A stretch of 63,838 bases of DNA, filler included, from Collodictyon triciliatum (taxonomy: Eukaryota), in NCBI GenBank assembly GCA_043381765.1. It is 5 parts of 5 records of this genome, joined end to end, with 100 filler letters (N's around TTAATTAATTAA, not from the genome) between each part and the next. Parts side by side here need not be neighbours in the genome. Positions count along the whole stretch, not along the records: positions 1 to 26,773 come from JBHJMP010000412.1; 4 more parts are not named here. One strand, given 5' to 3'. Both the position numbers and the translations under genes were made by a program. A model generated the notes under the pieces. The model was not told where the DNA came from. It made no database searches and saw nothing but the letters and a program-made list of their open reading frames with translations. Shown in pieces: positions 11,303-59,983 of the stretch (positions are counted from its first letter, which is position 1; the number at the start of each line of letters is the position of its first letter).

Positions 11303-13326
11303 CTAGCACTGGAAATAAAGCAGTGATAACGAGTTGGTCAGGGTGGCGTAACTAGCTGGTTGGCTGTGTGGGCAGCTTGATTTTTGGATAAGAAGAATAG
11401 AGAGCTGCTTTATGAGTACAGGCCATTCCGCCTCGATGGGCGCATCACCCGGGGTGTTGAAGTAAGCCCTGAGCTTGTTTTGTATATCTTTTATCGACTT
11501 GGAGTTATTGTATGCCCTCCAGTCTATGTGCCTCGCCTGCCATTCACAGCCACCGGCTGAATCGATGCTAGCCAGGATAGCACTGTGGTCGGACAGCGCA
11601 GAATAGACTGTTTTAAGTTTCTTGAACCACGCATGCAAGTCCCTTGAGCAGAGGAGGCGGTCGATTCTGCTCCACGTGAAGCCGCTTTTTGTATGTCTTA
11701 ACACGTTGCTCCTAGAGAGTGAGGATTGAGCGTCTTCCAAGGGTCTTGCAGCTTGTGCTTCATTGTCCAGTCGACGAAAGGTTTGTCACTGTGTGTCGAA
11801 GACCCAGACCATTCGGTGCTGGCATCCATAAGAGCGTTGAAGTCTCCACAGATGATGATACGTTTCGCAGACTCCATCTCCTTAGAGATAAGCTCATACT
11901 CGTGTATTCTAGTATTTGAACCTGCTGTTTGGGGCGACATGTATGTTGTCATTTTACGAGTGTCAGCTCCATCTATTTGGATATCGAGACTTATGCAGCG
12001 GCCAGGAATAATCTCTCTGAAGCGAGGATTGAGTTTGGCTATCCATTTCTTGCATAGAAACGCTACACCTGCGTGTCTCTGTTGATTATCGTCACAGGAC
12101 TACATTTGTGGACCTTTCCAAAGTTCATTGTTGGTTAGATTATCAGGGCTGAGCCATGTTTCTTAGAGATAGACGATGTCTGCATGAGAGAAAAGAGCAG
12201 TGTTTAGGGCCTCTTTTCTTTTATGGGGGTCTTTAATCCCCCTAACGCTCCACGACAGAACGTTAAAACGCATGAATAATCTACTGGTTTTTGGAGGCCG
12301 TAGCCCTCGGTGATTGGCCCTCTCCGCTGGAGCTGGGTTGCTCAGGGTGGGATGGTATACTCGAGTTATCCTTCATTTGGCCGGTGTTATAATTGCTCGC
12401 GGTTCGGCCAGAATTTGTCGGATGGTCTTGGACTTTGGGCTGCAACCCCTTTGTAGCTGGTGTGTTGGGAGATGCACTCTGTCGGTCACTAGCAACCCTC
12501 GGTTCCAATTTTTCCCCCTTATTCACGCGGTAGGCAGGGTCATCCATGTTTCCACTCTCATTATGATTTGCTTTCTGACTCTCTATATTAGGTGGTGTAC
12601 TTGATTGATTCATTCTCTTTTCCTCGGGCGAGGCTTTATCTTCGACGGTTTCGGTCTTTTTTTCGTGCGCCAGTGATTGCAGGATATGTAACCGGTGTTT
12701 TATATTCGCCTATCTTTCTTTTTCTTTTATTGGAAGGTGTTTCCCGCTGAGGAGTCGCAAGAGTTTCGACAGCAGGTCTGCTCCCATAAACAGTACTTGA
12801 GGAGTAATTTGTCCTTCCCAAACCTTCAATGTGCTCTCTTTCTTTGATTAGCGAGCTTGAAGCAGCATGTCCAGACAAATCGACCAGTAATTCGTCTGTA
12901 TTTTCTATATCCAAATCTTGACTTTGGGTCGCTTCATTATTAACCGCCTTGATTGTATTGAGCACTATGTCCGTGGGCTTCATGTCACGATTTCCCCCTC
13001 TTGTGGGGTTGCGATGTGTATCTCCCCACCTTTGGTCTTGTTGTTTGGTTCAAGACTGGTTTCGCGCTCGCGATTCATGAATGCTCGGCCTTGCTTCCAC
13101 ACTTTGATGGAATCCTGTTGCCGTGTAGCCCAAAGTGCGCGTGGTAGCTTTTCGTATGATGGTGGTTGGTTGGTTGGTTGGTAGTGGTCGGCTTGGTGGC
13201 AATTGTTTGATATAAGGGTCGTTTGCCCTTGTCTGTCGTTTCCTCCTTTCTTGGGGAGAGTCTACGGGATGTCGGTCTCTTTGAGGGCGCGAATCTCCAC
13301 AGGGTTGTGTACTTCTTGGATGGCAA
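11303..13326 (-). mobile_element. Degenerate L1/Tx1-like LINE fragment: ORF1 C-terminal part plus APE endonuclease of ORF2, no RT
   Basis: ORF1 ends with TAG at 12281; after a 7-nt spacer ORF2 starts with ATG at 12273: MRFNVLSWSVRGI..ADIVYL*ETW..HAGVAFL..PGRCI..IICGDFNA..LQDPWK..FTWSRIDRLL..SDHSAIL. These are APE endonuclease motifs, with two in-frame stops and a frameshift near 11700. Confidence 0.88.
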
Positions 13327-13682
13327 AAAGGGTGAATGTCTTTCTCGTTTTTTATTATTATTTACTTTTCTTTGTCAAAGGTCACGAGTGCACCGTTCTT
13401 GCCTATCGCTCCATACATGTATGTTTTGCCCAGAGTACGCAGAAGAACCGTTTTCGAATTATGGCAATATTCACTAGTACTGCTGATGAAAAAGGACCAA
13501 GTAGGCAGCGCATCTTATCGCCACATGCTTTATGTGCTGCATTTGCAATTCTTTGCTGGTCATAGAAACGAAATACATCGAAGGATAAGGAAGGAGAAAT
13601 AAAATCGAAAGAGTTCAAATGACATAACACGAAGGCTGAGAGCCACAGACACAGACACTGGCTGGGAAGGCAGGCAAAAGCC

Positions 13683-16600
13683 TCACGACTGCGTCTCTGT
13701 CATCTCCTGTTGACTTGCTGGCTGCTCCTGTTTGTGCTCACGCGACTCAACGAGCGTGTGGTTTTGAGCCTTGAGGGCTGCAAATAGGGAAGCTGAGAAC
13801 GAGGCAAGAGACGACGGAGTGCGTGGGTGAGTCTGTGCATCTACTCTGCCCTGGTCGTGGATGGTGACGGCCACGGAGCGGCTTTCTTCCTGTGTAGATG
13901 CGGGCTTTGGGGTTGGCGGGGGAGCATCGTTGCCTTGCGGATGAACTTGATTGCGGCCAACGGGCGGGCCTCCCGTGGCGGAAAATAAGGCCTGCAGGAT
14001 TTGAGATGATGTTCGGGGCCGCGAGACCGATTGTGAGCGCGGCTTTGTGCTGGAATCCTCTGCTGGGTTCAACAGGCCCTTTTCCATCATCTCCTGTCGC
14101 TGAAGCTCTTCTAGTCTTCTTTTCTTCCGGCGACGGAATGCGCGTTGGATAGCCAGTGCTGCATGTGAATGGGCAACCTTGTTTGGGGACAAAAAAAAAA
14201 GCTAGCTAAGTCTCAACTTATGTATGGAATACTTTTTCCTCTTTTTTTTTTTTTTGCATAGAAAATACTTCATACCATTACATAGTTATCAAATGTATGT
14301 CTTGTATATTATACCAATCCTTTCGAAGGCTTCAGCTTGGCGAGGTCTGGGAATGCTCGTCGATGCAGGTCTTCCATTTCGTCTCGTATTCTGGACTCAG
14401 GCAGTCTGGGTTATGGGAGTAGGATTTTCTGTGAATATACTATGAAAATAAGCAAAATGTGTGAACCGAGAATTGATTACTCGACTGAACCCAACACCCT
14501 TCGCGACAAGACCGAAATGACCTCGAAATAGTGTATCATCCCCTAATTGTGAATGCAGATAGTTCGATGTCATAACCACATATCAGTGATTTGAGAATTT
14601 AGCCATTATTCAGATGACAAAGATGAAGGCAGAAAGGAAAACGAATGCGTGTAATAGAAAACAATTATATATAAAGGAAAAATATAATAATTAAGAAGCA
14701 GTTTCTACCTGGTGCTCCGGTATATCAAGAGATGATATGAACTTCATCATGTCGATGCTATTCAAATCTGATATACGACGAAAATTAAAAGATACATATA
14801 ATTACATGGATGATGAAAGGACAAGCTACCTGCACCAAGTGGAGGTCCAATCATCCTCAAGAATTGTGATAACCTTTGCTAATATCAATAAGAGGATGGA
14901 AAATCACATAAGTCGGGATGCAAATGCAATTACACTGTCAAGCTATGTGATTGTGCATGTTGTGAATCTAGGATAGAATTACGTATTTCATGAGGTTCAC
15001 GTTCCCAGGGGCGGATAAGTAGGACCATATGATCACCACGCTTTATGTTGTATATAGTAATTTAGCATAGCTGGGCTTGATATCGCATAATAAATTTCTT
15101 TGGAAAAACTAATCGTATATGAAAAAGGAAGTCAGGCAATATCTAGGAATTCACTTCATGTCTGAATTTTACAACTTTCTATTGCACATGAAATTCGTAA
15201 ATTTGGCTCAAAAATCGTATAAAGTTTTACTCTGCGAGATACCCTTCAGGTATAGCTGTGTCCTCTTCATTCTTGGCTATGCTAAAATTCTCTAAAATGA
15301 CCGCTATAATACGATAGTTGTTCTATCAGCCATACTTCCATATGTAAAACGAATCATTTGATTTTCTAATTTATCCAGTTCAGTTTTTTTCTTTTTGTTT
15401 TTTGAGATTTTGGGCTATTGAGTTGTTCATGTATTGATGGCTCACCAGTGTAAATATTCAACATAATGAAGGATACGATGAACAAATAAAAGAAAAAGAA
15501 TGCATTTGCTGTTGCAGGTGAGCCACAATCATTTGCTGACCAGTCACAATCTGGAGGCCTTATCGAGCATCCCGCTTTTACGTTCGGCCAATCGTCAAAT
15601 GTCATGACCCTACAAGGCGATATAAAATTTAAACATGTTTTCATTGACATAATCTAAAAATCTAAATATGTAAGCTTATAGTTTGAAGAACGAGTCAAAA
15701 TATAGATAGGTAACTTTGACGTAGAGATGAAAGAAAAAGCTGAGTACCTGAAAAGAGTTAGAAAGGAAAGTGGAAATGTCGAAAAGTTTGAATGTTCATT
15801 CAAGCCATCCTCGGTCCAACGAATGTTCCCAAATAACGATGTGGCGAGACCAGCAAAGATAAATATTATGAGAAACAACACGGACGCGATTCGATACATG
15901 GAAGGGAGAGAATATCTAAACGGGTTTGAGCACTTTGTTAGAAAAAAGTATTAAACCAATTGTAAATAACTATACTTGTGATTATCTTCCATCTAGTTCG
16001 CATCGAACAACTCGGTTGTGCAGAAAAATTTTTTGCTCAATTTCAAAAAAAAAATACTTTATGGTCAAGAATATCTTCCGGATACTTTTCGACTCTCGCA
16101 TGATTCTCAAAACATTAATGAGTCTGAAGATTCTTATAATCCTAAAAATCGAAGTGTTCACTGCCAGACTTTTCCCAGTGATTGAAAGAGACGTGTCTAG
16201 GTTTTTCAGCAAGTATCGGGTAAGAAAAGTTGGCTGACGAATATATCAGGTTGGTTCGTGTAATGAAATTATTTGTGGAAATTTTAGGACATTTATGAAA
16301 GATTCATTTTTCATCAAGCTTACTGATAACTGATATAATCACAAGTGTAAAGTCTAGGCAATTCCATTTGCTCTTAAAATATTGTCTCTCGAGTGCAGTA
16401 AGTTTGATAATTGCTTCGGTGATGTATATGACAGTAAAACAAATGTCACTGGCAACTAAATAAATATTCATGTAAATTAAGGGGAAAGGACTCCTTTTTT
16501 TATTTCACTCAATAAAAGGCTGTTCGGTACCATTTAATTCATTTAAAATCTTCATCAGAAAAAAAACTTACAGAATGCCATAGTCCATGTGGGGTCGGGA

Positions 16601-19600
16601 TTACGGTGTTGACAGGCCATGATGATAATATTGGCGAAGATTGTGGCCGTTATACCATCTCGAAACCATCTCCGCCTTTCATAGATGATAACATTATTGA
16701 GATAAAGTTCAATTATTGAATTATTGAATAAAATCAACAGGAATTTGATTTGCGTTAGCTTGTTATTAACAAATGAACGTATTACATCGATATCTCAAAC
16801 ATAAATTTGCTCAAAGGCTTTGAAGGAGGTGCATATATCTCTTCAGGTTTTACTTTCGCGATTACTTTCTGCAAGTCATATTCAATTAAAGAAGGTATAT
16901 TCGATTTTATCTATTTATAAAAAAGCATAGAACGCAACAATAAGTCGAGAGTTACCTGAAATCTAAGCCATATTTTTTGCTTATGGTCTAACAAATCATG
17001 TCCATCGTATTTCTTGTGTAACTGCATGCATCAATTATGTATATTATATTACAAAATAAAATTACAAGAGCATACACAACCGGCAGTTTAAGTAGACTCT
17101 AGCAATCTAATTACCTCATGAAACTGGTTGACGACTACTGAGACAAACAAGTTCATTATAAAGAATCCCACGACGAATACGAATGCAACAAAAAATAGAG
17201 CGTATGACAAACGATTGTTTCGGATCGGTTGTTTGTCAAGCTAAGTTTAAAAGAAATAGAATGTTGTGTTCATGAATTTTGCAAAATAAAACAAACAGAT
17301 AGAGGTGAAGATAGCACTTGAGTATTAAAAAGTTCGAAAAACATACGCCCGCAGAATCCACCCCATTATACATGATGTCAACCCAACCTTCAAGGGTGGC
17401 AACTTGAAATAAAGCTCCCATTCCTGATAAAACATCGTCAAAGTTTGGGCTTTGGTTCAACCATTCCCTTAATCTCACCTTTATTTTTATTGAAAAATTA
17501 GTTATTTTTAAGATTGACTGTTTCGGAGCAATACAAAATCCTTTTGCTTAAAAATAAAAGAAATATTAATAGATGCCTCTCCATCTACGATAAAGACTCC
17601 AACACACTGCTCCATGGTCTCCACATCTTCGACAGGGAATAAATGGAAGGATTATAAAGTAAAATGCATACTGCATAATATTTTTGAGAATTTGCATTTC
17701 AAAGAATAACCCGAACTTCCTTTAATTATATAGTAAACATGCATACTCGAGTCAGTGCAGTAGTAAAACTGTCCTCCAAATAGTTGTACTCCCACGATTG
17801 CAAAAATAAGCCAAAACAAAAACGAAATGAAGAACACGTTCATGATGGGTGGAATTGATAGTATCATGGCATTCACAATAATCTGTATTCCAAGTCCATT
17901 GTTAAAATGAAACCTCATATACACATACATTAATGGCAAAATATAGGAATTTGTAACAATCTATCATATTCTACAGGGGGAAATTCCTACCTTCATTTCT
18001 CCCTGTCTATTAATTAATCGGATGGGCCGAAGAGCCAATAGAGCACGAAGAGCTCGGATTGTTTCAAATCCACTATTTCTTGCCGTGATCGACACAATCG
18101 ATAGCTTTGGAGAAAAAACATCGTCATGCAAGCGTCTACTTATGGTAAAATCAAGTAATTTCTACATACCAGTATTATTATTGCATCAAATTTGTTCCAG
18201 TTATTGCTCAAGTAGGCGTGTTTACCATCGTATAGTCCATGCTAAATTTTTAATGTATTCTTACATATGAGGGAGAATTATGGGTTCACTACAATTGGAT
18301 TATTCTGAGAGAGATGTGCTAATATTGAAAAATGAAGGAATGTTACATATATTTACTTACAGCGATGGATACAAATAAAATTTCTACGATAAAGGCTGAG
18401 ACAAGAATGACATTAAATGTGTAAAGGATACTCTCTTCCAAACCAGTCACATTATTTGACTGGAAAACCAAAATAACACAGCTAGCGATTATGATTCCCA
18501 AAAGTGTATATTCAAAGTATGGATGATGCACCGTGCGATAGCAAATCTGAGATATGCATGTATTTGGAACGGTGAGTCGAACAAAGGTATACCGAATTGT
18601 ATAAGATAGGTTAATGGGAAGGGTTGATTACCTTTCTAATTCTACTTTCAGGAGAAAATAGTCTGTAAGATTTTCCTTCCATGGGCGGAAGGTTTGATGC
18701 CGTCTTCCCTTGTTGTGGAGCAACATTTCCAGATTGTATTTTCTTAAGCTTTTGTTTTAGGACTTCTCTTGCTTTCTTCCCACGATTCGTTTTGAACTGA
18801 CCGGGAGGCTTCGACGATCCCGCTACGTTTTGACTTTCTTGGGTGTTGGACTGTAGACCTTGTCCATTTAGAGGCGGGCTTGCCTGCTGTTGAACAAGTT
18901 GATTATTTCAAATAAAACAGCACAGACATCCCTGTTCTTAAACAACACAAATAAAAAACAATGTCTATCTTGAACGCTCAAAATTCCAATTATGTTAAAA
19001 AAATTACCTTAGCCAAGTTATCTGACGACGCATCATAAATCATACTTGGCTCCTCTTCTATGACATCATGCCGACGTACTTCAGTTTTAATTATTCCTTC
19101 ACCTTGTAATTTAGTCACTGATATTTTCCTTCTCAACTGCTTCAGCTTTATAGCAGCTATCAGGCTAACCTCTCTTGTATTCCTGATTTATTTTATTTTT
19201 ACTTAAAAAAGTTTGCAAATAAATTGAATGTTAGGATTTGATTATCAATAGATAAAACCAATTTAATTGACCTCTGAAATTTTATTAGCTCTTTGTGTTC
19301 ATTTAGCACATCTTTTCTCAATTGAGAGAAAGAATTGATGAGAATAGCCAGGAAAAGGTACAACAAAACATCTAGAGTAATGTGTTTTATTAATTTTAGT
19401 ACCATTGGAATAATACCGGATATATAAGCTACAAATCGACTCACAATTTCCAAACATCACAACAATTACAAAATACGCCGCTGCCATGGGATGTGTATCT
19501 CTCATGGTTTGATACATCAACGTAGTCCAATCAGATGTAGATATGACCTATATTAAAATATCAAGAATATGTGAGTCTTACAAATATTAGAGATAAAAGA

Positions 19601-21470
19601 AGCCATTGACAAATGATGGCATTCGAAATACGACCTGAAATTTGTATAAAAAAAATTACACTAAATTTTTTAAAAAAAAAAACCTGAATTACCGACAGCA
19701 TGGCTCGGGGGAATGTGTCGAAATTATTGCGCGATAAATTATATTCTAACTTACCAGCAAACAGTTGCATTCCAACCAAAGCAAACATGCTCTATGTTAA
19801 GATATACGAGAGTAACTCATATGGTGATTATCAGGTGCTCCCTAATGTAGAGTACAAATTGCCCGTAATATGTAATGAATGTCTCACCAAAAAAATTAAT
19901 AGAACCCATATTAGATTTGCTACTTCGTGTAAACTCCTCACCACGGTAGCGAGCAGTAATCTCAAGGTGTCAAATATGCTAAATTATCGTCGAATGTAGG
20001 TAACCAGTGAGAAAACGTGATGCATTGTTAATGTACTATTGAAATACATTACGAATGGTGGAAGTGCAGCGTAAAAGGTACATTCAAAAAATTACCGAAA
20101 AAGTTTAAGGATCCGAGTTGTTCGAATAAGTCTGAATGTTCGTAGAGTCAAAAGATAACCTCGACCATTCATCGAAATCTCCACAATACTTACAATAGTA
20201 ATAATTGTATCGAAAACGTTGAACTGAGGGGACAATCATTAGTTAAATTGTTCTTTTTTTCAGTTTCTTCTTTCTAAATATAAAAATGTATGTCATCATT
20301 TTTTTCATGATTTGATTTCTTGTACTTCGTCCTGAAAGTACCGCCTCCAACCAAAAGCAATTAACTTCAATACGACTTCACACGCAAATATGATGGTGAA
20401 TATAAGATTGAGCATTTCTGTCGGTAAAAGAGCCTTGTTTTGATCAGTGTATTTTTTGATTTGATATCATCATTGAATAAAAATACCAATATATGTGTTC
20501 ATATCTACCCGTATATACAATATGGAAATGAATTATTTGAGTGAACTAATGCGCGAAATATATGTTTAATATAATGGTTCTTGGAAAATCATCCATACGT
20601 GTTATTATGAACTGCTCGTCAGTAATTTCTGGTTTTGTGAATGCCAATAGGATTGTGTTTGATATAATTGTCATAGTAATAATATTTGTAAACTGCTGAC
20701 TCGTAGCAATCTGAAGTTACGCAGTACCGATTATTAGTAAATAATTCGTTTCGTAAAGATATAGGTAGCGAACACTCCTTTAATAATCTGAATATATGTG
20801 TGCATGTTAAGAGAAAAATGGACTATGAGTAACCTGGAAACACTTCGCAACTATAGTATTCAAGCTTTGAGGTGCAAGATAAAGTGCTTTGTGTCGATTC
20901 CTAATGCAAATATTTAACTTTTATCGTATTCACATGAACATTGAGGCTTTTATTAGTGACAATCGATGCCGTTTTTTTGTATTTCATCACCCAATCTAGC
21001 TTATCGATTCGGATGTGAATATGATTATGATGTATTTGGGGACACATCAAATAAACTCCATGAAAACTTACTCGTTAGACTTTGCATCAGATTTTTTTAC
21101 TATTAGTCGGAACATAAATCAGTATAGGCAAAATTAACCATAAGTGCCCAAACTTGAAGTGCTTAAAATGTTTTTTGAAAAATAAATTACTCACTTCTTT
21201 TTGAAATCTCGCTATAAGATTCAGTGATTGCAGCCAGGGCCAGATTCACGACAAAAAATGTGTTTATCATCACAATCAAACAGAAGAATATGTCTGATGC
21301 CTCATTAGTACCATCAGACACCTTTTCGACATTTGAAACATTTTTAGTGATTGTATGATTACTCGAAGAAAAAAAATTTTCCTTTATTCGATTCAAAGTG
21401 GAGCGAGGTTATGCCATTACTCGAAGAAAAATAAATGGAAAAAAAAAAACATACCAATACCAATTTTTAG

Positions 21471-21546
<76 letters not shown>

Positions 21547-23874
21547 CTGGAACAGAAACATTTACATAGGTTAATTGATATTGGTAGGTTAAGTTATTTT
21601 TTTCACAGAATGAATGTATGTTATAACCTGATACATGAGCTTTCCCCAATTATCGAGCGTCACGGTTCTGAATATGGCCAGGAATGCACCGCCGATGTCG
21701 TCAAAATTTGTGTATCCAAAATCTGGATTCGATTTAGTGTCTTTGCAAACATATCCTATTATTCAAGAAGAAGCATTTGCGTGGTTACTAAACCTACGCG
21801 AAAAACTATACTTTTATTTCCGCAAATTGAAGATGAATGGATAGGGCAGTATTTTGATATAGTAGATGCTTTTCTTTTATTTAAGAAAACATATAAAGTT
21901 CACGGGCAGCAACGAAAAACATTTTTATAGCATATATTTGAGCTACCTTTAGGACAATGGCGGGAAAGTGGGTGTGTCCCACATAGAAATCCGCTGACTT
22001 CAAACTCACCTAGGCAATTATTTTACATGCTCCAATCATATTATTTTGCGTGGAAAACTTCATAATTTTATAAATGGACGGATATGTGTTTGTTTGCAAG
22101 AAATACCCGTCTCTATATGAACGCAGCGATGCACCAAATTACCAGAAAAGAACTCGATACTGATAATGGAGAAAACAAGAAACATCATTATGCAAAGGAA
22201 TAATATGCTCAAAAGGTCGGGAATGGAGCGGATGATTGAATCCACGACAACACGCATTCCCTAGTGGTTTTAATAGCGAGTTTGTATTAATATATGCTTG
22301 AGAATTGAAGTGAGATTTGTGAAGCAGACCTGAAATCTTGAGAGAGCACGCAAAGGTCTTAGCACACGAATCACCCTTATGGCTGAAAAATTCCCAACCT
22401 CGGGGAAATAGCTTAAATTTCTGTATGGATACGATTTAATTTGCATTTATCTAAGCAAACTCAGATTATTCCACAAAAAAAATCGATTGATTAAATGATA
22501 TTCGTCTTTCTTCAATTATTTATAAGAGTTTTTCTATTTTTAAATTTTTTTCTCAAAAACAAACCCGACGATGACTACAAAGAAGTCAATCCAATTCCAG
22601 TAGTCATATAAATACGTATGCTTCCCGCGCACAAATCCGAGAGCAATTACTTTAAGTATCATCTCCATCGTAAAAATTACCAAAAAAAGGATTTCCGTCT
22701 ATTTGTAATGAAACAAAACAAAAATCAACAACAATTGCCATCGCGTTGTACCAATTTAGTAAGTTTATGTCAGCCTGGTTATCTATGAATATTGCTTCAA
22801 GTATAAATTATGTATTTTTTTTAATATGTTCATTACGTTGTTTAGGATGACGTTTCCAAAATATGTATCTGGCTCTGTGGGTGCTGACAGTCCCAGCACA
22901 ATACAATTTAGCACAATGCTCATTATCATCGATTTTTCGAACCATCTGCGATTGTTTTATGATCAATTTTCAAAAAGAAAAGTAGAACAAGTTGGCTTTA
23001 GTACACAAATGAGGACTACGTAAAAAAATAAAGAGTCAAAAATATGTGGTGAAATAAATCTCTTTTCTTTTTTAGTTTAGCAACGTTCGTTGCTGATTAT
23101 ATGGCCTAGAATAATAGGTACATACTCGTTTGAGATGGTTTGAAAACAAAACTTTCGAAATCCATTGTCTGTCGAAAAGAGACGAAGAGACATTCCCTCC
23201 ATCTATTGTAATGTAAGGATAATTTAATATACAAAGGTAGGCACGTCAGAGTGTAAGTTACCCAAAAAGTTACTTACTGTATGTTTTCCTCCGCTATATG
23301 AATCTGCCTTTATTACTTGACCCTCTGCTTCGTCTCCTGATGCAGGTGGGCTAATAGTGTTTATGTCCGATTCACAATTTTCTTTTATCTGACAGTTGTC
23401 TACCTGATAATTCAAGTCACCAACCCTACTCCCATCCCACGAGCGAGCATCATCTCTGTGATTCGGTGGGGTAACATGTCCACCGACACCAGCACCAACT
23501 TGGTCATCTGTGTCCAATAATGAGCCAGCTTTAGCGATTAAATAAGCTGGGGCATCAGTGGTGCTGTGAACAGGGTTTTGCTTGGCAGACTGTATATTTT
23601 CTGAGTCACCAATTCGATCAACAGGCTGGTCCGCTCGCGAATGCATAGCCAAAAGAGATTTTGAAGGTTTTGGAAGGTGGGAGTGATCCTGAGAAGTTGC
23701 ATGCAAATGTAGTCTTGGAGATCTCTGCAATGAATAAGATAATATCCCAGGTTGTATGTGCGATGATTGGTTATGTGTCTCAGCCATTTCTTTGATTAAT
23801 GGATGTATGGAGTGAGGTAATTGTTCGGTGTTTGCATTAGTTGGCTGCAGGTTCATCTCCTGGTTCGACTCCAT
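13683..23874 (-). CDS. Four-domain (4x6TM) voltage-gated cation channel alpha subunit, Nav/Cav/NALCN superfamily, many exons
   Basis: Four S4 helices (AIRVIRVLRPLRALSR; LRTFRLIRTTRILK; IRALRALLALRPIR; FRIIRIFRLINVLR). Four pore loops (FRTVTLDNW, IQVISTSDW, FQVATLEGW, FRVMTFDDW). C-terminal IHYFEVISVLSRRVLG and IQ motif AALAIQRAFRRRKK in the last exon (14177-13683). ATG at 23874. Confidence 0.95.
21472..21543 (+). repeat. (AC)n microsatellite inside a channel intron
   Basis: Perfect dinucleotide tandem. Confidence 0.95.
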
Positions 23875-24996
23875 TGTTGTTAAATCTATCAAAATGTGAA
23901 GACAGGAACTAAAATTAGACTAATAAGTTTTGTAGGATATTCTTGAACTGCGCAACCAAAGCCGCAAACTAGTTTCCCTTCAATCAGAATTATCTAGACT
24001 ACGGCGCTGAGGCGTAAACATTCAAGCCCTGTCAACCAGCAACATCACGAAATAGCTATGACAGTCATGAAAAAGCAAAAGTCGAAGCAGAAATGAGGAT
24101 ATAAATGCGCGAAGGACAAGAAATCGAATCAAAACACGAGCTGGAAACGATTCCACAAAGTCTGCCTCGCCATGAGTTCTGACTGCCATCTACTGATTCG
24201 CAAGGGCAGTTGATTCCCAAATGATCCAAAGATCAAGCAAACGATTGAGGTTAGTCAGCAGAAAATGCGGCTCTTTTTGCGTCCAAGCCATTCCATAGAT
24301 TTGCTCCCTTTTCATGCGCCCCAGGCAAAAAAAAAAAAAAATGGATGAATAGATAGCGCAAATAGTTGGCTGCTGGTTTGGAAGCAAGTCTTTGGTCTCC
24401 GACTTGAACCCACAAATGAGACCGAAAATAGTAATAGAATGGATAATATGCAACTAACATCCAAATTCAGGTTCTCTGACTAATAAATTCGTTCGTGGTA
24501 ATTTGCCGTTATTCTATAAGTGGAATATAATTTTATCTCATAAAATATAATCTAAAACTGGATGGGGTGCATTACTATTTCTATTTATACTAGAAATTAT
24601 AATTTTGACTGTGAGTTTGTGTGTTTATCAGGTACGCAAATGTTTTTTTTCACTTTTTTCACTTTTTTCACTTATTTATCTTTTTTCTCTTTTCTTTTCT
24701 TCATTTTTTTCTTTTTCTTTTCTTCATCTTTTTCCTTTTTCTTTTTTCTTTCTTCTTTTTTCTTTTTCTTTTTTCTTTTTCTTTTTCTTTTTTCTTTTTT
24801 CTTTTTCATTCTTCACTTTTACTGTTCATTCTTTTTTTTCTTTTTTCTTTTTTTCTTTTTTTCTTTTTTTTCTTTTTTTTCTTTTTTTTCTTTTTTTTCT
24901 TTCGAACATTACACTACGTCCTGCATATTATGGGGGCTATTGAAGCACGGGACATGTCGGACATACCCTTCGTAAACTGTTTGCTCCGTAGGATAT

Positions 24997-26563
24997 ATGG
25001 CAGACGTCAAACCCCAAAGGCCGATGCATGATCGTGCAGATTCCTCAAGACAAGGCTCTAGTGCCCAAGGAGAATATGTGGAAGCTGGTTTTGTTGCGGA
25101 AAAGATCATAGGCTCAGGAAGCTTTGCCAACGTCTATCTCGCCTCGATGCCTGGCCACCACGAAAGAGTGGCAATCAAACGAATCCTGCTGGACAAGCGC
25201 TTGAAGGTTTTCCCAGTTCATTCCCTTTGTAACTAAAGCATTATATCTTTGCCTATGTGCGAATGGCAGCGTAGTGGGCTGTGATATCAAAAGAAAAAAA
25301 AGGTGAACTCCCCGGTTGATGATGCAAGTACATCTAACAGAGAATCCGACTTAATGACATCTTCATATCAGAACAGAGAAATGCAGATTTTGAGAAGCCT
25401 CAACCACCCCAACATTATAGAGTTGAGAAAATTCTTTTTTTCGGCTGGAGAAAAGGTAAAATTAACATCTAGGCAGTGTCTTGTTTTTATCCCAACTTGA
25501 CCAAAAAATTGTTTTCATCTTAATAGGCTCATCTCCTTTTCTTCTTTTCTTCTTTTACTATTGATTGTGGGTGAATTACGCTTATGTTTTCATCGAATAT
25601 ATATATCATTTTTATCCATATGTTAGATTTAAGTGAGTGATTTTAATAAAATTAAAAAATTACTTAAATTAAGGCAGAGGAGCAGTATGTTAATCTTGTG
25701 ATGGAATATATCCCAGAAACGTTATCCAGGATTATTCGATATTATCACAAGCAAAAACAGAGCCCTCCAACAACGACTATCAAACTTTACACATACCAAC
25801 TGTTTCGTGGCCTTGCATATCTACATTCATCTGGTATATGTCACCGTGATATTAAGCCCCAGAACATTCTAATTAACCCATCTCAAGGTGATCTTAAGAT
25901 ATGTGATTTCGGAAGGTACTTCTCTCCTTTGATAAGTGATATTAATCAAAAAGGCGATTTTATTTTCTTTTGCGTTTATCCCAGCGAAATTCCATTGTAA
26001 AATTTCTCGATAAAAAAAAGAGGAACATTCTAGTTACTTATTGTAACTGCATCACCAGCGCAAAGCACATGATCAAAGGTGATTCGAATACATCATATAT
26101 ATGCTCCCGGTATTACCGTGCCCCAGAGTTGATCTTGGGCTCATCGACATATTCTTATCCCATCGGTTCGTTTTAATGGTTAAATCAACAAAAAATGCTT
26201 GTGCAGAGATAATGAATTTTCTTCTAAATTTATCTGGTGGACCCTTTCAATAGTTGCATAATAAAAATATGACTGAATTCGGAGTAATGAAATACACTTT
26301 CCATCCCAAATATTATTTGTAGAATGTATTATTCCTGAACACAATATTCACATGTATGCTTCTTTGTAGATATTTGGGCAGCTGGTTGCGTCTTGGCAGA
26401 GATGCTTCTGGGGCAGCCGCTTTTTGTCGGCGAGAGCTCTGTGGAGCAGTTAGTGGAAATTATTAGGATACTTGGAACTCCGTCTAAGGAAGACATTTTG
26501 AATATGAACCCAAATTACACCGAGCTCCGATTTCCACATATCAAAGCGCAATTCTGGGGGAAG
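24997..26563 (+). CDS. GSK3: Glycogen synthase kinase 3 / shaggy-like kinase, 3'-truncated by the contig end
   Basis: Exons give [28 protein letters not shown]..|..[34 protein letters not shown]..|[51 protein letters not shown]. Confidence 0.97.
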
Positions 26564-26773: not shown

Positions 26774-26873
26774 NNNNNNNNNNNNNNNNNNNNNNNNNNN
26801 NNNNNNNNNNNNNNNNNTTAATTAATTAANNNNNNNNNNNNNNNNNNNNNNNNNNNNNNNNNNNNNNNNNNNN
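26774..26873. other. Artificial contig-joining spacer
   Basis: 44 N + TTAATTAATTAA (stops in all six frames) + 44 N = 100 nt. Confidence 0.95.
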
Positions 26874-31841: not shown

Positions 31842-34800
31842 TTATGATGGCGGCACAGCGAGTGCACTGAGTGAGCCCACGAGTTCGTTCTCGTCGATGC
31901 CCTCGGACATCAGCATTGGCTGCAGCTCTGTTTCATGCGGCAACGATGTTAGCGATATACATATTAAAAGAAAAAGTCACAAAAAAAGCAGAATAAGAAA
32001 AGAAAATATAAGCCTGAACCGATCAAAGGGAAAAAATAGTAATTCTTGTTTATTTTTTTAAATAAAAAAAAAACTCACGAAGAATATCGATGAACTCTGA
32101 TATTTCCTCCAAAACAAAGACTTCCTCCTCCATCATCTTCAGGAAGGCCTTGAGGCGCTCTTGCATTTCTTGCTCTCCAGACACAAGCCTCTGCTTCAAC
32201 TCCACAACCCATGGCCTGTATATAATTCGTTACTTGGCAGTGGATATAAAGAAAAAGAAAAAGAAAAAGAAAAAGAAAAAGAAAAAGAAAAAGAAAAAGA
32301 AAAAGAAAAAGAAAAAGAAAAAGAAAAAGAAAAAGAAAAAGAAAANNNNNNNNNNNNNNNNNNNNNNNNNNNNNNNNNNNNNNNNNNNNNNNNNNNNNNN
32401 NNNNNNNNNNNNNNNNNNNNNNNNNNNNNNNNNNNNNNNNNNNNNAAACAAAGAAAACAAAGAAAACAAAGAAAACAAAGAAAACAAAGAAAACAAAGAA
32501 AACAAAGAAAACAAAGAAAACAAAGAAAACAAAGAAAACAAAAACAAAAACAAAAACAAAAACAAAAACAAAAACAAAAACAAAAACAAAAACAAAAAAA
32601 AAAGAAGAGAAAGAGAAACAGCGCAACTCACGTGGTTGCATCCGTGTCATTGATACTGCCTCTGGGCAGTCCGCTTTTGAAAATGTTTTGGAGCTCGTTG
32701 ACGATTGCAAACAAGACAAGCGCAGGACGAAGCCGCTGGCTGACTGGGAGAGCCGGGTCGAGTGGCTCTGTGAGTCGTGCAAGAATCAGCTGCTTGAACA
32801 AAGTGTAGCGATTCTGCTCCCAGTCGCTTTGCGTGTAGAGCAGCAGCGTGGCCACAAGCATGTAGCTGGCATTGTCGACCACGAGGGACGCATCGCGCCA
32901 CGAGCCGGTCGGGGCTGCGGTAAACTGGTTCAGAGCAGTCTGGAAAGAAGCCCGCGGGTTGGGCGGCTGGTCCATCAGAAAGAGGGCCATGTATATCATG
33001 TGCGGAACCATCGAGAGGTTGCTTTCGCTTCCGCCCAGCGAGTCGGTGGAGAACGACTCCTTGTTGGCCAGGCGCACGAGCAGCAGGCGCAGGTCGTGTG
33101 TCAGAATGCGGATGCGCGATGTGTTGGGCACCCGATATACGCCGCTGAGGTACTGCCAGTATCGGTCGACCTCGCTCGCATATGCGTCTGACGGGATTTC
33201 CGGCCCGCGGATAGGGAAGATGCTGTTGCAGGGCGACCCGGAGTTGCGTAGGGCGGCTCCGCCCCACTCGTCCATCGCATTGCGGCCCGTCTTTTTCACG
33301 CGCGTGTCGTTCTCGTGGCACTTGAAGTGGATGACTTTGAAGTATGTCACGGTGCAGATGCCCGACTCTTGCTTGCCTTTGGGCGGTGGCAGACCTGGAC
33401 AGGACACAGGAGAAAGGTGTTTATGTGGCATGATTTCACATTAAAAGATGTGGTCTTTCTTTTTTTTTTTTAATTGTACCAGTGCCGCTGTGAAGTTGAC
33501 CCGATATCTGGACTCGCTTGGAGTATGTGTAGAATCCAAGTGGCTGCTGCTTCTGCAAAGTGTATCCTTCGCGGCAGATGGCACATTGGTGGCCTTTTTC
33601 CTCCTCGATTTCCTCCGTCACCATAGTTGAGGCCGTGATGGATTCCAATGCCCTGTGGTGGTGGATGAGAAACTCGGCGCTGATTTATGGCTTGTATATT
33701 TTTCATTGCTTGGGTGATATGATGGAGTGCATGAAATAAGGTTTGGTATCCTACTGCACTCGCTTGCCTTTGGCCTTCTTCTTACGCTCTGCAACTATGT
33801 CATTTTGCTCCTTTTTGACATTGGCTGCGGCCTCTTCCTGTGTAGTGCAGATTGGTTTGAAAGCATATATGAGCAAAAGAGAGAATATGGCGAAAAACCA
33901 ATAAAAGGAAATAAAAGGAAATAAAAGGAAATAAAAGGAAATAAAAGGAAATAAAAGGAAATAAAAGGAAATAAAAGGAAATAAAAGGAAATAAAAGGAA
34001 ATAAAAGGAAATAATCNNNNNNNNNNNNNNNNNNNNNNNNNNNNNNNNNNNNNNNNNNNNNNNNNNNNNNNNNNNNNNNNNNNNNNNNNNNNNNNNNNNN
34101 NNNNNNNNNNNNNNNNAAAGCAAATAAAAGGAAAAAAAAGGAAATAAAAGGAAATAAAAGGAAATAAAAGGAAATAAAAGGAAATAAAAGGAAATAAAAG
34201 GAAATAAAAGGAAATAAAAGGAAATAAAAGGAAATAAAAGGAAATAAAAGGAAATAAAAGGAAATAAAAGGAAATAAAAGGAAATAATCGCATACGTTGC
34301 CTTCGCAGATAGCAGATAAACACATCCCGCTCATGGAGCCGATGTTTTTGCCACTGGGTATGGATTCAAGGCGACATAGCACTTTCACGATTCCGCTGGA
34401 CACAAGAAGAGACTGGCTTGGTGTATGCGAGCGAACAAGACCTTCATTGTTTATTTCAAGTTAAGTCAACCCCATATCAATTAAACAAATATATCTAAAA
34501 AGGAAGCATTATCATTTCAAATAAAAAAATTACATAAAAGAAAGGGCATATGAAAAAAATACCAGTAAGATACTCCAGCAAAAGTGTGACGGAATGCTTT
34601 TGCAGAGACTCTGTCCATCTGCAATTTTCAAGAAAAGGAGAATAAGGGTTAATTACAGTTTTGTTTGTAACATAAATGATTCATATATTTATGAAAATGG
34701 TTAAATGTTGGATATAATGATTCCTCACTGTTTTGAGTTTTTGTCCAGGGACGGCGGGAAGCTTTGTAGAAGATAATCAGCAATCTTTTTAGTGATTCCT

Positions 34801-37800
34801 CTGCGAAGGAAATAATCGCGCATCAGATTTCCGTTGTGGTTCACTGGAATCATCGATAAGGCCATCTTTAAGGCATTCAAATAGTGATTCTTATCCCTAC
34901 AATATCAACATAAATAAGGCGTAATTATTTAATATATTACGGTTACTCCAATTCTTACCTAAATAAAACTAGCACAAAAACTAACACAAAAACTAACACA
35001 AAAACAAAAACAAGAACAAGAACAAAAACAAAAACAAAAACAAAAACACAATACCAACATAAGACCAGATCAATTGAAAAAAAAATGATGAAAATCATAA
35101 GGTGAAATATTTACGCATCAGGGGTCTGTGATGCATCAAAATTTTCAAAGTCAAAGTAGGGTTCAAAAAAGTCGGCCAAAATCTTGAAAAGTTGCTCATT
35201 TCCATAAGTGAGGAAGGGTAGTACACGAGACAACACATTAATAATTTTAGTGTTTTTGCGTAGTTCGGGGTTACGTAATTTCTCCAAAAACATTGGGAGA
35301 TGACTTAAATCGGTCGCAATTTGTTCCTCGTCGTGCATTTCATCTATTTTAAGACATTTTTGGATTTGTCCAAATTATGTTATTTCATATATTCAGAAAA
35401 ACAAAATCGAAAACAAAATCGAAAACAAAATCGAAAACAAAATCGAAAACAAAATCGAAAACAAAAATAGGACAAAGAATAAAGAATAAAGAATAAAGAA
35501 TAAAGAATAAAGAATAAAGAATAAAGAATAAAGAATAAAGAATAAAGAATAAAGAATAAAGAATAAAGAATAAAGAATACCTTCTCCCTTACGAACAAGA
35601 TTGGCCTCTGCAACCAAGACAGATATCAGCTCGATGATATTCTGAGACAAGGCAGAAATCGAGTCTGATTGGAACACTTGTTCCAGCTTGACGAACAGAA
35701 TGGATACCCCACGAAGTTTCAGCATAGCGAGGCGGTTCTGCTTCAGTTTTCCACAGTAGTACAATATTGTCAGCAGCAGAGTGACAGTTTCGCGATGCAG
35801 CTCAAAGTTGTTCACTTGCTTTAGCCAGTTCAAAAGGAATTCAATTCCATTTGCCTATGTATTTTTTAAATCAAAATAAATAAAAACGATTCCTGAATTA
35901 TATGAAAAGAGGTTATTATGAAAAGCTGCGGGAAAGATAAAAGTAAAAAAATAAAAAAAATTAAATACAACGCAATTGTTGAGAGGTATTGATCCCAAAA
36001 TAAAGCGTATGAACGTTGTGAAAATTACGTCGCGCAAAACGGATGTAATCGCAAATTCTTCTTCGGGGTCTCTTTCCACATCCTGTTCCTCGTCGAGGGT
36101 CTCGACAATTGTCTCTCTGGCCTCTCCTTCCAATCCTTGCAGGCGATACACAACAACCATGGGTGGTAACGAGGCTCTGTCCTTCTCCGGTCTCGATGGG
36201 AGCCACACTTTTTCGTAGACCAGCTTGATACTTAGCCCAAGGTTGATAATTTTGTTATCTACAAGCAGTTCAATGCCGTTGTCGCTCTGGAAGAATATTA
36301 ATTAGAATGAATACAAACATTATGAACAGCAATAAGGAAGTATACACGTCATTTTTTTTTTGAATTTTAGATGTTTATAGGAATTAATTTATACATCTAG
36401 GAAAGAGCCCATCCCGAGGTCGACACATATCTTATTCTTTACATTTCTCATTAGAGGACCCACATCCCTTGATGAATAGGGATTGCGATTCATAGAGCCT
36501 GGGATGAATTCCTCCTGAGACGATGCCTTGTTGAGAACCAATTGATAGACAGCCTCTACTTTCACAGGACGTATTGTGATACTCATTTGCTCCAAAATGA
36601 AAAGACCAGTGGAGCCCTTCCAGTGTTTGTGGAGTGCCGACGAGCATGTGGTCATATATCTTATTTTATCTTGCTCGGAGTCACCAAAGCATTTCTTAAG
36701 TAGTTTGAGCAAGAGGTCACTGGCATCGTCCGTCAATTTGGTTTTTTGGACAACTAAGCCTCTCAGATGAAGATAGCTATCGAGTACAGTCTCCATCAGA
36801 TTTCCTTGCTTGAACTTGGTGAGGGCCAATGGATTCTCTACAAACAGGTTCATCAACTGAACTAGATTCTTGAGGACAAATCCTTGGGACATATCCGTAG
36901 AGAACGAGTTTTCAAGGAAGCTGATACGGTTCGTCTCGATGCCGATGGCTGTCAGCAGTTTCGGGATGATTCCCTATATGAAAGAGTGTATCAGTTCATA
37001 CTTCTTCCAATTTAAAGCAAGGTTAAATTCCTCACGAAAATACATACAATAAAGAACGTGTGGATGTATAATTCACATTAAGGGCATATATTCGTCCGCT
37101 TTTTCTTTTTCTTTTTTTACTTTTTACCTTGATGATCAAATAAGCTCGGTACTCCTCGCTGAGCAGTTGGTTGTAGAGTTCAAAGAATTCGCTTGATGCT
37201 TCTCCCGCCTGGGATGTGTGCTCAAGCATAAGTGTCAACAAATCAACAAAGCGCAACTTTCTAATCGCACTTCCTTTACAGAGTGTTTCAATCAAGGATT
37301 TGGTCTCCTGGCGAACCAACTGCGAGACAGGGTTAAGTAATAGCTTTCTAATCCATGAGCCTTGAATGAAGGGCGGCATTACATGCTCTTCTTTCAATAA
37401 TCCGGCCTTCTGTTTCCATACTCGCACACATTTTCTGACCATGTATCGAATTGATGGGTCCATCACAACGTCTCCCTTCTTGTCAGTGGATGTGGTTTGC
37501 TTGATGGTTTTGTTATCCGTGAATAGGTTGCTGGACCACTCCGCGAATTTGGGCTCGCTTTCCTTCCATTCGGAGTAAGAAAGCTTGGGGCAACGGTCAA
37601 GAGCCCTTTCAACCTCAGCAGGAAATTTAGGGCTGCTTGAAATGACACAAAGCTGTGATATAACTCGAAGGCAAGGAAGTGTAATGGCCTCCGTGATGAG
37701 AGGAGAAAGATATCCTTTGGAGATGGCAGAAAAGAATATCTCAATGACAAGTTTCAATCTACTTTCCCACACGCTATCTTCAATCATGCACAATTCGGAA

Positions 37801-40800
37801 AGGAGATGTACTTCGTTGGATATGTGCCAGACAGATTCTGTGTTTCGAGAATCCAAAACACAGCCGAGTACTTTTTCCTTCAAAATCTGATTCACTTGCT
37901 TGGTTGCTTCTGGATTATCCTTTATGAGGGATGCAATGACAGAGCGCGTATCAGCGCGAGTCTGCTTTGTTCCTTGGTGGAGTGTGACAGTGAGCAACTC
38001 CTCCAAAACGCCTTTTTGAATGAGGTCGTCTCTGATGACAGAGTTCTTTGAGATGGACTCCAAGAGTTTTAATGAGCGTGTAATAAAGTGAATGGCACAT
38101 CCAAAACATTTGCCCGATGGTCTTTCAGCGGACGAACTTGACGGGCCTTGAAACCCACCACCTTGGCTCTGCGAGTAGCGCAGTAATTCTCGACGGAAGG
38201 ATGTCAACATTTGGACACTGCGGCTAAGTGCCTCAAAGTTTGGCTTGCAGTCTCGGTGATAGAGAGACCCCAGCGCTTGGATTTTCATATTGACCTTGTT
38301 GTTGGAGCTGCTGGACATTCCACGGCTCGCAGCGGCAGATATTATGTCTGTTATTTCTCGAGATGAATCGTCATCCTGATCGAGAATACGATGGATAATC
38401 TTTTGCAGCGGCTTCTTGAAGTTGACTAATTGCTGGTAGCTTTTATGGGCATTTTTTGTTTCCTTCTCGATGTTTTCCAGACAAAGCTTTCGGTCCTCCG
38501 CGCTAAAGATTCGGTCAGCACCAAGGTTGCGTTTAGCAAAGAACGAAAATTCAAATTTCCCATATCTGCAAAATCCGCACTGGACACAGAGGAATGCCCG
38601 TAGATCTTCGTAGTGAATGGCGCGGCACTGGCGGCACTGGAAAGCATTCTCTCCACAGGAACACATGCCGTGTTTTTCTGTGACTGTTCTACTGCAACTA
38701 GGACATTGAATCTTTTCAAAGGCAGCCGATGGACTTTCGTAAAACTCTGTGAATTCCAATTTGATGTTCGAAGCCACAATCGGTATGGGGAATTCGGCTT
38801 TAGCCTCGTTCTTTCCTTGCTGCACATGAATCGGAGCACCGCGTTTCCATAGTGCGTGGTTGTTCTTCAGTTCGGCCATGTCGGCACTTGACGTAGAGTA
38901 AAAGACAGACACTAGCTTGACACTCTTTGACTTTCTTGATTCGCTGCTAATATTGAGAGATACAGCTCGAAGTACATAGCTGCCATTAAACTTTATGATT
39001 TGCGAGTTGTGCATATACTTTACCTCAGACTTAATGGTATCCACTCGAATAGGATGGAACGGTACTTCAGGGTCGTTGCAAACTAAGCACGGGTCACTCT
39101 CGAGATAGAATCCGTCCACATCAATGTACTGGCCCAATGCCTTGTACATGAAGGAGTTTGGGTGGTTGACCAATAGGGTATTTTGCTCCCGAAGAATGTC
39201 TTTGAGGGAATCCACAACACCGCTGATGGCTTTTGTGTCCTTTCCACCGTAGATATGCATCATTTGTTCGTAGCAGTCGAAAAAGTCAGTTGCATTTTTA
39301 CCATATGAAGGCATGGAAGACAGTTTTGAGGTTAAAATTGACAAGATATCCTTCTGTTTCTCTGGATACAGCGAAAAAACAGCCAATACAAGCTTGCGGG
39401 TCTCTGTCCTCACAGCAGCGATGTTGACGCCAAGGAGGTAAGAGTCGATGAATTTGGAAAGCTGGCTATCTGAAATCGTCCATAAAACAGCAGGGTCTGC
39501 ATCAGAATCCCTCCTTCTCGATGGTTTTGGATCGGATGAGTTCTTTCTGCCTGTAATCTCTTCGCTTGCTTTTGACGCAGTCGGTTGGGATGAACTGGCA
39601 TCCTTTGGAGTAGATTGTGCATGCGAAGGTGCAGTCGAGTCCTTTTTGGTCTCTTCAGTACTAGCTGCTTCTGGGGTGCCAGCAAAGGCTTCCAGCAGCA
39701 GCTTGAGAACGCCAAGGATAGACTCTTCCACCATAAAGTCCGATATATGGAACAAAAAGGTCAGAACAGAAGGGTCTTGATGGCAGATGAGCTTCCAGTT
39801 ACGTGGTCTGCTTTGTGCTACTTTGAGAAGCTGATTGATTGCGTACAACAATTTGTGGCTGTGCTCAAAAGACAGGCTGTACATACCTCCTAATTTAAGT
39901 TGAGGAGCAATCTCTTTGATTTGTGAGAGATAAAACTTCATCACGCCACAATCACGCACCTCGTAGTATTTGCTCTTCGACTTGTAAATAGCACGTATTA
40001 CTTTCTTTGCAAGATTCTTGACAAAGAACGTCTGTGGGAGCGCTATTAGCTGGCACAGGAGTTTCACAAAGGTTGGCAGGTTCTCGTCGTCCATGTACGA
40101 GTCATCAACAGTCTTTTTCGCTCGAATCGTGTTGTAGTAGAACATAATCAGTATGTCGAGCAGCAGCTTCCGGTAATCCGAGAAGGGGTCGGGTGTGGCG
40201 CTGAGGACCAGGTCGGTCAGGAATGGCTCATATGTTCTCTTGAAAGAGTACTGAGGCACAAGAAGTAGGCTATCCGACTGCGACGAGGCATTTTCGGTGT
40301 TGCTCAGAACGGTGGACTGTTTCATTGAAGAATAAAAAAGGGTCAGTCTTTCTAGAGAGGCCACGACCAACGGGCCCAACTTCTGTTCGAGTATAAAGCT
40401 GGCCACTTCACCAGCAGAATGAAGAGTCGCTGCCTGTTGAAATGGCGATGTTAGAGACTCTACCACTTCAGCCGATTTCTTTTCCCTAACAGGTACCAGA
40501 TGCAAAAACTGCATAGACATCATGTCGCACTCCAGAAGGGCACTTCGGTTGGGTGAGAGTGAAAATATGGGACTGGATGCGTCTGGGGAGACGGTTGTGA
40601 TACATTTTTTGATAGACTCTGTGTCGAGCTTTCCTGATGTAATGAGGCTGAGCAAAATCTGGAGGTATGGCAGTGTATAGAAGCCCCCCTTTGATCTTTT
40701 CTCCTTAAATGACTCTAGCAGTAGATCAACAAATTGCTTTGTCGGGTAGGAGCTGGTGCCCACACTGTCATCGAGACTCATCCGGATGGCCTCTTGGAGC

Positions 40801-42373: not shown

Positions 42374-42473
42374 NNNNNNNNNNNNNNNNNNNNNNNNNNN
42401 NNNNNNNNNNNNNNNNNTTAATTAATTAANNNNNNNNNNNNNNNNNNNNNNNNNNNNNNNNNNNNNNNNNNNN
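42374..42473. other. Artificial contig-joining spacer
   Basis: 44 N + TTAATTAATTAA + 44 N. Confidence 0.95.
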
Positions 42474-48039: not shown

Positions 48040-48139
48040 NNNNNNNNNNNNNNNNNNNNNNNNNNNNNNNNNNNNNNNNNNNNTTAATTAATTAANNNNN
48101 NNNNNNNNNNNNNNNNNNNNNNNNNNNNNNNNNNNNNNN
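48040..48139. other. Artificial contig-joining spacer
   Basis: 44 N + TTAATTAATTAA + 44 N. Confidence 0.95.
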
Positions 48140-59883: not shown

Positions 59884-59983
59884 NNNNNNNNNNNNNNNNN
59901 NNNNNNNNNNNNNNNNNNNNNNNNNNNTTAATTAATTAANNNNNNNNNNNNNNNNNNNNNNNNNNNNNNNNNNNNNNNNNNNN
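59884..59983. other. Artificial contig-joining spacer
   Basis: 44 N + TTAATTAATTAA + 44 N, flanked by (AG)n and (TATG)n microsatellites. Confidence 0.95.

Follow-up and report, generated by a model that had tools for sequence, protein, structure and literature searches.

A four-domain channel gene with a predicted D/S/E/D pore ring in Collodictyon triciliatum

Gene model and domain architecture

The stretch of DNA analyzed here (63,838 nucleotides (nt) in full, referred to as the window) stems from the genome assembly of Collodictyon triciliatum (GCA_043381765.1) and consists of five parts joined end to end, the first of which (positions 1 to 26,773) was taken from record JBHJMP010000412.1. 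The minus strand of this part carries the gene of a four-domain channel, which extends from an ATG at 23874 to a TGA at 13683 and comprises 41 exons and 1779 codons with an open frame. A preliminary description of the window had proposed such a channel and had read the residues of its selectivity-filter ring, from domain I to domain IV, as Asp, Ser, Glu, and Asp (D/S/E/D), a combination that it regarded as unusual. In this study, a complete gene model was generated, the pore loops were compared with channels of solved structure, and the relatives of the protein were collected, aligned, and placed in trees.

The model was assembled by a script from minus-strand open reading frame (ORF) fragments and the window sequence, and the coding span 13683..23874 was additionally covered by tblastn matches of three related proteins, P0008, P0005, and P0010 (see below). 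Each of the 40 introns follows the GT-AG rule. Their lengths range from 56 to 306 nt with a median of 116.5 nt, the density is approximately one intron per 130 nt of coding sequence, and the donors begin with GTA (30 introns), GTT (4), GTG (4), or GTC (2). No in-frame TAA or TAG is required anywhere in the model; this and the intron lengths, which are much greater than those of ciliates, led us to dismiss a ciliate origin.

Six C-terminal exons and one 63-nt exon of the domain I outer loop (21947..22009, minus strand) were positioned with the aid of tblastn matches of P0005 and P0008. The 63-nt exon, which is bordered by AG and GT sites, has phase 1 on both sides, and remains in frame, is the less certain component and indeed the least certain part of the model; the corresponding match of P0008 (residues 431-474, on 22064-21945) is weak (E 0.013). 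Direct joining of the exon 22260-22107 to position 21755 was considered as a possible alternative. The 63-nt exon was preferred because of the P0008 match and because its two Cys residues bring the domain I outer loop to four. By our own count on the printed model, the outer loops of domains I to IV contain 4, 0, 2, and 3 Cys residues; the pattern given for the family is 4-0-2-2 (Fux et al. 2018, PMC6259924).

The Pfam family Ion_trans (PF00520) matched 17 of the 24 exons tested at E<=0.01, and ten of them exceeded the curated cut-off of 25 bits. Arranged along the gene, these exons cover the profile in four ordered passes. Together with the end-to-end alignment to P0008, which bears four Ion_trans stretches itself, this argues for four repeats of six transmembrane segments (6TM), as the 4 x Ion_trans superfamily demands, and bears out the four-domain channel proposed initially. 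For the N-terminal exon of 199 amino acids (aa) and the last exon, no Pfam family was matched.

All four S4 segments are rich in Arg and Lys. Five such residues were counted within the 20-residue S4 stretch of domain I (exon 22330..22420), six in domain II (S3-S4 exon 20096..20223), five in domain III (exon 17991..18104), and six in domain IV (exon 16058..16196), all on the minus strand. The linker between domains I and II amounts to approximately 45 residues in the model. The linker between domains III and IV is short and contains the sequence GHDLLDHKQK, which presumably occupies the place of the hydrophobic inactivation motif of Nav channels.

In the last exon (13683..14177, minus strand), a low-complexity tail and the stop codon come after an IQ-like motif, AALAIQRAFRRRKK. 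The motif was aligned by tblastn to AALTIQRYF of P0008 (residues 1703-1720, 56% identity). The G+C content of window positions 12001-14000 is 0.48 compared to approximately 0.34-0.38 over the remaining gene, and this rise coincides with the last low-complexity exon and its 3' flank.

The pore ring and the domain II splice junction

The four ring codons were found on the minus strand at the positions given in the preliminary description: GAT (Asp) at 21654-21652 in domain I (context IFRTVTLDNWGK, TVTLDNW), TCT (Ser) at 19535-19533 in domain II (VISTSDWTT), GAA (Glu) at 17391-17389 in domain III (context LFQVATLEGWVD, VATLEGW), and GAC (Asp) at 15596-15594 in domain IV (RVMTFDDWPN). The residues that directly follow them (ring+1) are Asn, Asp, Gly, and Asp. 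Two positions past the ring residue, each domain has the Trp that characterizes pore loops of the 4 x Ion_trans superfamily, which appears as WWWW in an alignment of 59 rows.

To assign the ring, the pore exons were searched one by one against the full set of solved structures. The domain I exon (21628..21755, minus strand; Ion_trans profile positions 157-196) matched 54 solved sequences at E<=1, with Cav3.2 at the top (2.9e-15) and tvtlDnw opposite vitlEgw. Similarly, 54 solved sequences were matched by the domain III exon (17347..17478, minus strand; also placed by the Ion_trans profile) at E<=0.01, Cav3.1 being the best (3.8e-16), and tlEGW stands opposite the D/E-G-W of domain III.

In domains II and IV, the pore loop is split between two exons. 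The first domain II exon (19684..19791, minus strand; profile positions 142-183) leads from S5 to the pore helix and ends in AMLSVIQ before the donor GTTTTT, and the second (19445..19547, minus strand; profile positions 185-218) encodes the filter with the ring Ser, the ring+1 Asp (19532-19530), and S6. This second exon matched four solved sequences at E<=1, all of them Cav3 (best 2.5e-4, Cav3.3). Its istSdw lies opposite ltqEdw of Cav3.1, Cav3.2, and Cav3.3, and the alignment continues ungapped through S6, as do the tblastn alignments of the exon to P0005 (31-64) and P0008 (774-807), which are likewise ungapped. In domain IV, the S5 to pore-helix exon (15748..15915, minus strand; profile positions 125-182) is followed by the filter and S6 exon (15446..15609, minus strand), which carries the ring Asp, the ring+1 Asp, and an outer loop of the form C..PP.C...DCG. 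Sixteen solved sequences were found for the latter at E<=1, with NALCN as the top match (9.6e-4) and mtfDdw opposite vtgEdw.

The matches of the pore exons to solved channels go far beyond chance, and in every alignment printed, the residue that precedes the conserved Trp by two positions is paired with the ring Glu or Asp of the solved channel. With no gaps around the ring motifs, D, S, E, and D fall on the ring positions of solved Cav3 and NALCN. The predicted ring is therefore D/S/E/D, with an additional Asp at ring+1 of domains II and IV. The neutral Ser next to a retained Cav-type Asp in domain II, and the second Asp in domain IV, had been pointed out previously and are borne out by these alignments.

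The domain II Ser codon is located four codons into the downstream exon. The intron (19548..19683, minus strand) could be read directly from the sequence as 136 nt with GT and AG ends, and use of the nearer upstream AG (after tttcag) leads to a TAA after 15 codons, both in agreement with the preliminary description. The GTTTTT used in the model is preceded, at a distance of 9 nt, by a second donor of consensus-like appearance, GTAATT (19692-19687). Splicing from GTAATT would remove the three pore-helix residues V-I-Q; the Ser codon is untouched by either choice. The longer form is favored by homology, since the junction aligns without a gap to P0005, P0008, and other relatives, the distance from NFD to W is 21 residues both in the model and in Cav3 (own count), and the profile positions of the two exons adjoin. 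With the tandem donors at 19684-19692, in-frame isoforms with and without V-I-Q could both be produced. When all three minus-strand frames of the gene were scanned with a crude pore motif, no second domain II-like pore exon was revealed; the pattern also missed the split loops of domains II and IV.

The introns 19548-19683 in domain II and 15610-15747 in domain IV interrupt the pore helix at a nearly identical place. The former follows the FQ/IQ codon in phase 0, and the latter falls within the matching Arg codon in phase 2. The domain IV intron is 138 nt long, a multiple of three, and contains one in-frame stop. A (TG)n microsatellite of approximately 70 nt (window positions ~21472-21546) was observed in the intron after the domain I pore exon.

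Relatives and known channel classes

With the domain IV exon as the query, 51 proteins were recovered at E<=0.001 in an exhaustive HMMER search. Among these, P0004, P0007, P0011, and P0025 were matched in 5-20 short stretches each; P0004 and P0011 were excluded from the alignment as presumed repetitive false matches. The domain III exon, used as the query of a word-based search, gave three distant matches only. With the domain II exon, the same type of search gave one candidate with shared words and no scored match, the query being 41 aa long, including seven residues read from the intron. A metagenome scan with this exon produced 216 pattern matches and no relative, and a scan with the alignment of P0005, P0008, and P0010 found a single locus of 30% identity, a distant channel that is uninformative for the clade.

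The closest full-length relative is P0008 (1771 aa), which is 37.1% identical to the model over 1707 columns (model residues 2-1634). P0005, a single EukProt Trinity transcript of 974 aa, is truncated at the N-terminus and starts in domain II; its identity to the model is 39.7% over 968 columns. In a word-based search with P0005, for which P0008 was outside the length range, the next-best neighbor was 27% identical. P0010 and P0034 share 29.0% and 25.2% identity with the model, respectively. The bit scores of P0008 were 719 with Nav1.7, 690 with Cav3.2, 656 with Cav1.3, and 292 with NALCN. Judged by these scores, P0008 is about equally distant from Nav and Cav and much farther from NALCN.

Rings were compared in an alignment of 59 rows, comprising the model and 58 of 113 fetched proteins (at least 1300 aa, plus P0005, and without P0004, P0011, and P0088). 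EEEE was found in 30 rows and other rings in the remaining 29. Ser occurs somewhere in the ring in 9 of the 59, and in domain II in three, namely the model, P0005, and P0076 (SSDA). The complete DSED is confined to the model. P0005, in which domain I is missing, has the ring -SED with -AGD at ring+1, while P0008 and P0010 have DEDD and P0034 has EDDD.

FastTree, applied to all 59 rows, grouped the model and P0005 as sisters (support 100), joined successively by P0008 (87), P0010 (99), and P0034 (96). IQ-TREE (LG+G4, quick search, SH-aLRT), applied to 30 rows with the full model, returned supports of 100, 82, and 99 for P0005, P0008, and P0010; P0034 no longer grouped with them. Cav1 (insect, hagfish), Cav3 (fish T-type together with P0001 and P0002, both EEDD), and fish Nav formed separate, fully supported clades. 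The deep branches were weak, as they are in published trees. Since P0005 shows S-E-D in domains II to IV and is the sister of the model with support 100 in both trees, the domain II Ser is a shared residue and not an error.

The phylogeny that the preliminary description had suggested was thereby carried out with Cav1, Cav3, and Nav as the labeled families. Its proposal of a distinct clade holds in part: by these trees, the clade of the model lies outside the labeled Cav1, Cav3, and Nav rows, and as regards NALCN, the evidence is the score of P0008, which is far lower (292 bits) than those with Nav and Cav3.

With respect to individual classes, P0005 and P0008 resemble the model in their common clade, in the GCSIxPP of the domain IV outer loop, and in an alignable C-terminal region. 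P0008 differs by the Glu in domain II of its DEDD ring, and P0005 by Ala instead of Asp at ring+1 of domain II. Among the solved channels, Cav3 is the best match for the pore exons of domains I, II, and III. It shares with the model the ungapped segment from filter to S6 in domain II, the ring+1 Asp of that domain, and the motif GWVDIMY in domain III. However, Cav3 has the ring EEDD, "always" so according to Spafford 2023 (PMC10120453), and Asn instead of Asp at ring+1 of domain IV; the model differs from it also by its I-II linker, and it is placed outside the Cav3 clade (support 100). Cav1 and Cav2 have EEEE, rarely EDEE, which is at odds with D/S/E/D, and the beta-subunit interaction domain (AID) is limited to the animal clade (Pozdnyakov et al. 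2018, PMC5824947).

The ring of the model contains no Lys, in contrast to DEKA and DKEA of Nav1. Nav2/Cav4 channels (DEEA, DEES, DEEG, DEET) are similar to it in combining three carboxylates and one small neutral residue without Lys, and such rings have been reported as Ca2+-permeable or non-selective, but the neutral residue is situated in domain IV and not in domain II. Nav channels furthermore lack a residue at ring+1 of domain II in the alignment of Spafford 2023 (PMC10120453) and have Glu at ring+4 (Fux et al. 2018, PMC6259924), whereas domain II of the model reads S-D-W-T-T, with Asp at +1 and Thr at +4. NALCN, the top solved match for the filter and S6 exon of domain IV, has in common with the model the ring+1 Asp of that domain and the outer loop C..PP.C...DCG. 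In NALCN and Cch1, S4 is poor in charges (PMC6259924; PMC5824947), whereas it is fully charged in the model, and the ring differs from EEKE, EKEE, and EEEE and is free of Lys. Likenesses were also noted to the non-animal channels of Pozdnyakov et al. 2018 (PMC5824947), which form lineage-specific clades and have non-EEEE rings, including some with Ser in domain II; further points in common are the charge of S4, a III-IV linker like that of Nav, and an IQ motif.

These authors analyzed 277 four-domain channels and described EEEE as dominant, with "a great variety" otherwise. The non-animal rings named include D/D/K/D, A/G/K/E, D/K/T/D, D/D/D/D, E/Q/D/E, N/E/D/N, and T/E/N/D, and Ser in domain II is on record in E/S/L/L of Paramecium and S/S/K/E of Phytophthora (PMC5824947). 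D/S/E/D is not named in the Results and Discussion of that paper, whose Figure 3 and supplementary tables contain all 277 rings. Our literature search did not find D/S/E/D as a selectivity-filter ring; "DSED" in print refers to a separate locus of Cav1.2, the DCS locus. The 2025 survey of 1,476 candidate four-domain channels across eukaryotes contains no ring survey in the passages covered here (PMC12412391). In view of the published variety and of the 29 non-EEEE rows in our own alignment, the preliminary description overstated the rarity of such a ring. D/S/E/D is unusual, yet not unprecedented as a kind of variation among non-animal channels, and it is partly shared with one distant relative. 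The picture of the family is unchanged by this gene, as many kinds of ring have already been recorded.

Interpretation and other features of the window

The reading that we prefer, with a probability of about 0.6, is that of an intact gene for a voltage-gated 4x6TM cation channel with a D/S/E/D pore, which comes from a sparsely sampled lineage separate from Cav1/2, Cav3, Nav, and NALCN/Cch1 and is permeable to Ca2+. In such a channel, the four charged S4 segments would sense voltage. The pore ring would be formed by three carboxylates and a small polar residue in domain II, and domains II and IV would each place an extra Asp one position above it. These two Asp residues may supply much of the divalent binding that is otherwise provided by the absent domain II Glu, and selectivity over monovalent cations would probably be lower than in EEEE channels.

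We infer conduction of Ca2+ from the resemblance of three ring carboxylates without Lys to DEEA-type rings and from the two ring+1 Asp residues. Calcium-type rings include DEEA, DEES, DEEG, DEET, EDEE, and NEEE, and the DEEA channel of a choanoflagellate was non-selective among Na+, K+, and Ca2+ (Fux et al. 2018, PMC6259924). The ring+1 Asp in domain II was termed the "calcium beacon" of animal Cav, the Glu at ring+4 being the "sodium beacon" (PMC6259924), and according to Spafford 2023 (PMC10120453), Ca2+ selectivity or strong block by Ca2+ is associated with an Asp at ring+1, located in domain II of animal Cav and in domain IV of NALCN and many non-animal Cav. The following points weigh against this interpretation. 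P0005 has Ala at ring+1 of domain II, and therefore compensation by ring+1 is not general to the clade; moreover, P0005 lacks domain I, which limits the comparison of its ring to domains II to IV. Finally, predictions from the ring are unreliable, as small changes and the outer loops also govern selectivity (Pozdnyakov et al. 2018, PMC5824947).

The channel might instead be an ordinary, highly Ca2+-selective one in which the domain II ring+1 Asp takes the place of Glu, resulting in an effective D/D/E/D ring with a Ser of little consequence. P0008 has E-G where the model has S-D, as if the carboxylate had moved by one position, and the number of acidic residues over ring and ring+1 is five in both proteins; in addition, ring+1 Asp always accompanies Ca2+ selectivity or block according to Spafford 2023 (PMC10120453). 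Against a replacement stands the ungapped pairing of this Asp with the ring+1 Asp that Cav3 possesses besides its ring Glu. The S-A of P0005, furthermore, indicates that Ser was kept without a neighboring carboxylate, and none is required in the clade. We consider an effective D/D/E/D ring unlikely, although it deserves more weight than the two explanations that follow.

Through RNA editing or the use of another exon or splice site, the mature messenger RNA may lack the Ser codon. The upstream GTAATT donor could be taken as a sign of variable splicing, but the Ser codon is indifferent to the choice of donor, the nearer acceptor runs into a stop, no further domain II-like pore exon emerged from the crude scan, and P0005, which is derived from a transcriptome, has Ser in the same column. 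Such a transcript is thus very improbable. Equally little credence is given to a decaying or non-conducting gene copy, or to a Ser created by an assembly error. Nothing was found that speaks for either, whereas 1779 codons are open over 41 exons with canonical splice sites, the S4 charges and S6 motifs are intact, and the Ser recurs in P0005.

Returning to the preferred reading, a more far-reaching version is put forward tentatively, as we think it somewhat less probable than not: the channel gene and P0005 would represent a conserved voltage-gated subfamily able to dispense with the ring carboxylate of domain II, and the ion choice of the Collodictyon channel would be set by the facing pair of ring+1 Asp residues in domains II and IV. 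Its filter, with a double beacon and three carboxylates, would then fall outside all four classes of the Spafford 2023 scheme (PMC10120453), and it could have a distinctive profile for divalent and monovalent cations.

In mutagenesis work on animal channels, the core of Ca2+ selection is taken to be the ring carboxylates of all four domains together with the ring+1 Asp of domain II. Here, a natural channel is predicted to do without the domain II carboxylate, a loss kept across approximately 60% sequence divergence from its sister P0005, while the ring+1 Asp of domain II is retained and joined by another in domain IV. The modest interest of the gene lies mainly in the natural test that it offers of what the domain II carboxylate and the ring+1 positions contribute. 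The diversity of non-animal four-domain channels is large and almost uncharacterized, and the D/S/E/D channel is a potential functional data point within it.

Several other genes were recognized in the window. A protein kinase gene on the plus strand (24976-25997) and the channel gene stand head to head; Pkinase was matched on 25668-25997 (1e-22), and the exon 24976-25233, which reads GSGSF..VAIK, is taken by us to be GSK3-like from its appearance. A long pyrimidine-rich low-complexity tract with runs of F, S, and L (24551-25031) lies between the 5' ends of the two genes. Just downstream of the channel gene, a minus-strand ORF (11701-12099) matched Exo_endo_phos_2 at 9.5e-6, below the curated cut-off, and is probably a remnant similar to long interspersed nuclear elements (LINE).

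A UBR4-like E3 ubiquitin ligase gene was found on the minus strand at 32631-41507, with matches to E3_UbLigase_R4 (to 9.8e-63), a UBR4 domain, and a ZZ zinc finger. It contains an uninterrupted ORF of 1491 aa (37035-41507), in contrast to the intron-rich channel gene. Exons of an ER-vesicle transporter (COPIIcoated_ERV, 7.7e-16) are located on the plus strand at 50157-51879, and exons of a GRAM-domain gene on the minus strand at 56602-57054. A pattern of 44 N, 12 bases, and 44 N occurs at 26774-26873, 42374-42473, 48040-48139, and 59884-59983, and the window holds further runs of N in the form of five gaps of 100 N and one of 119 N.

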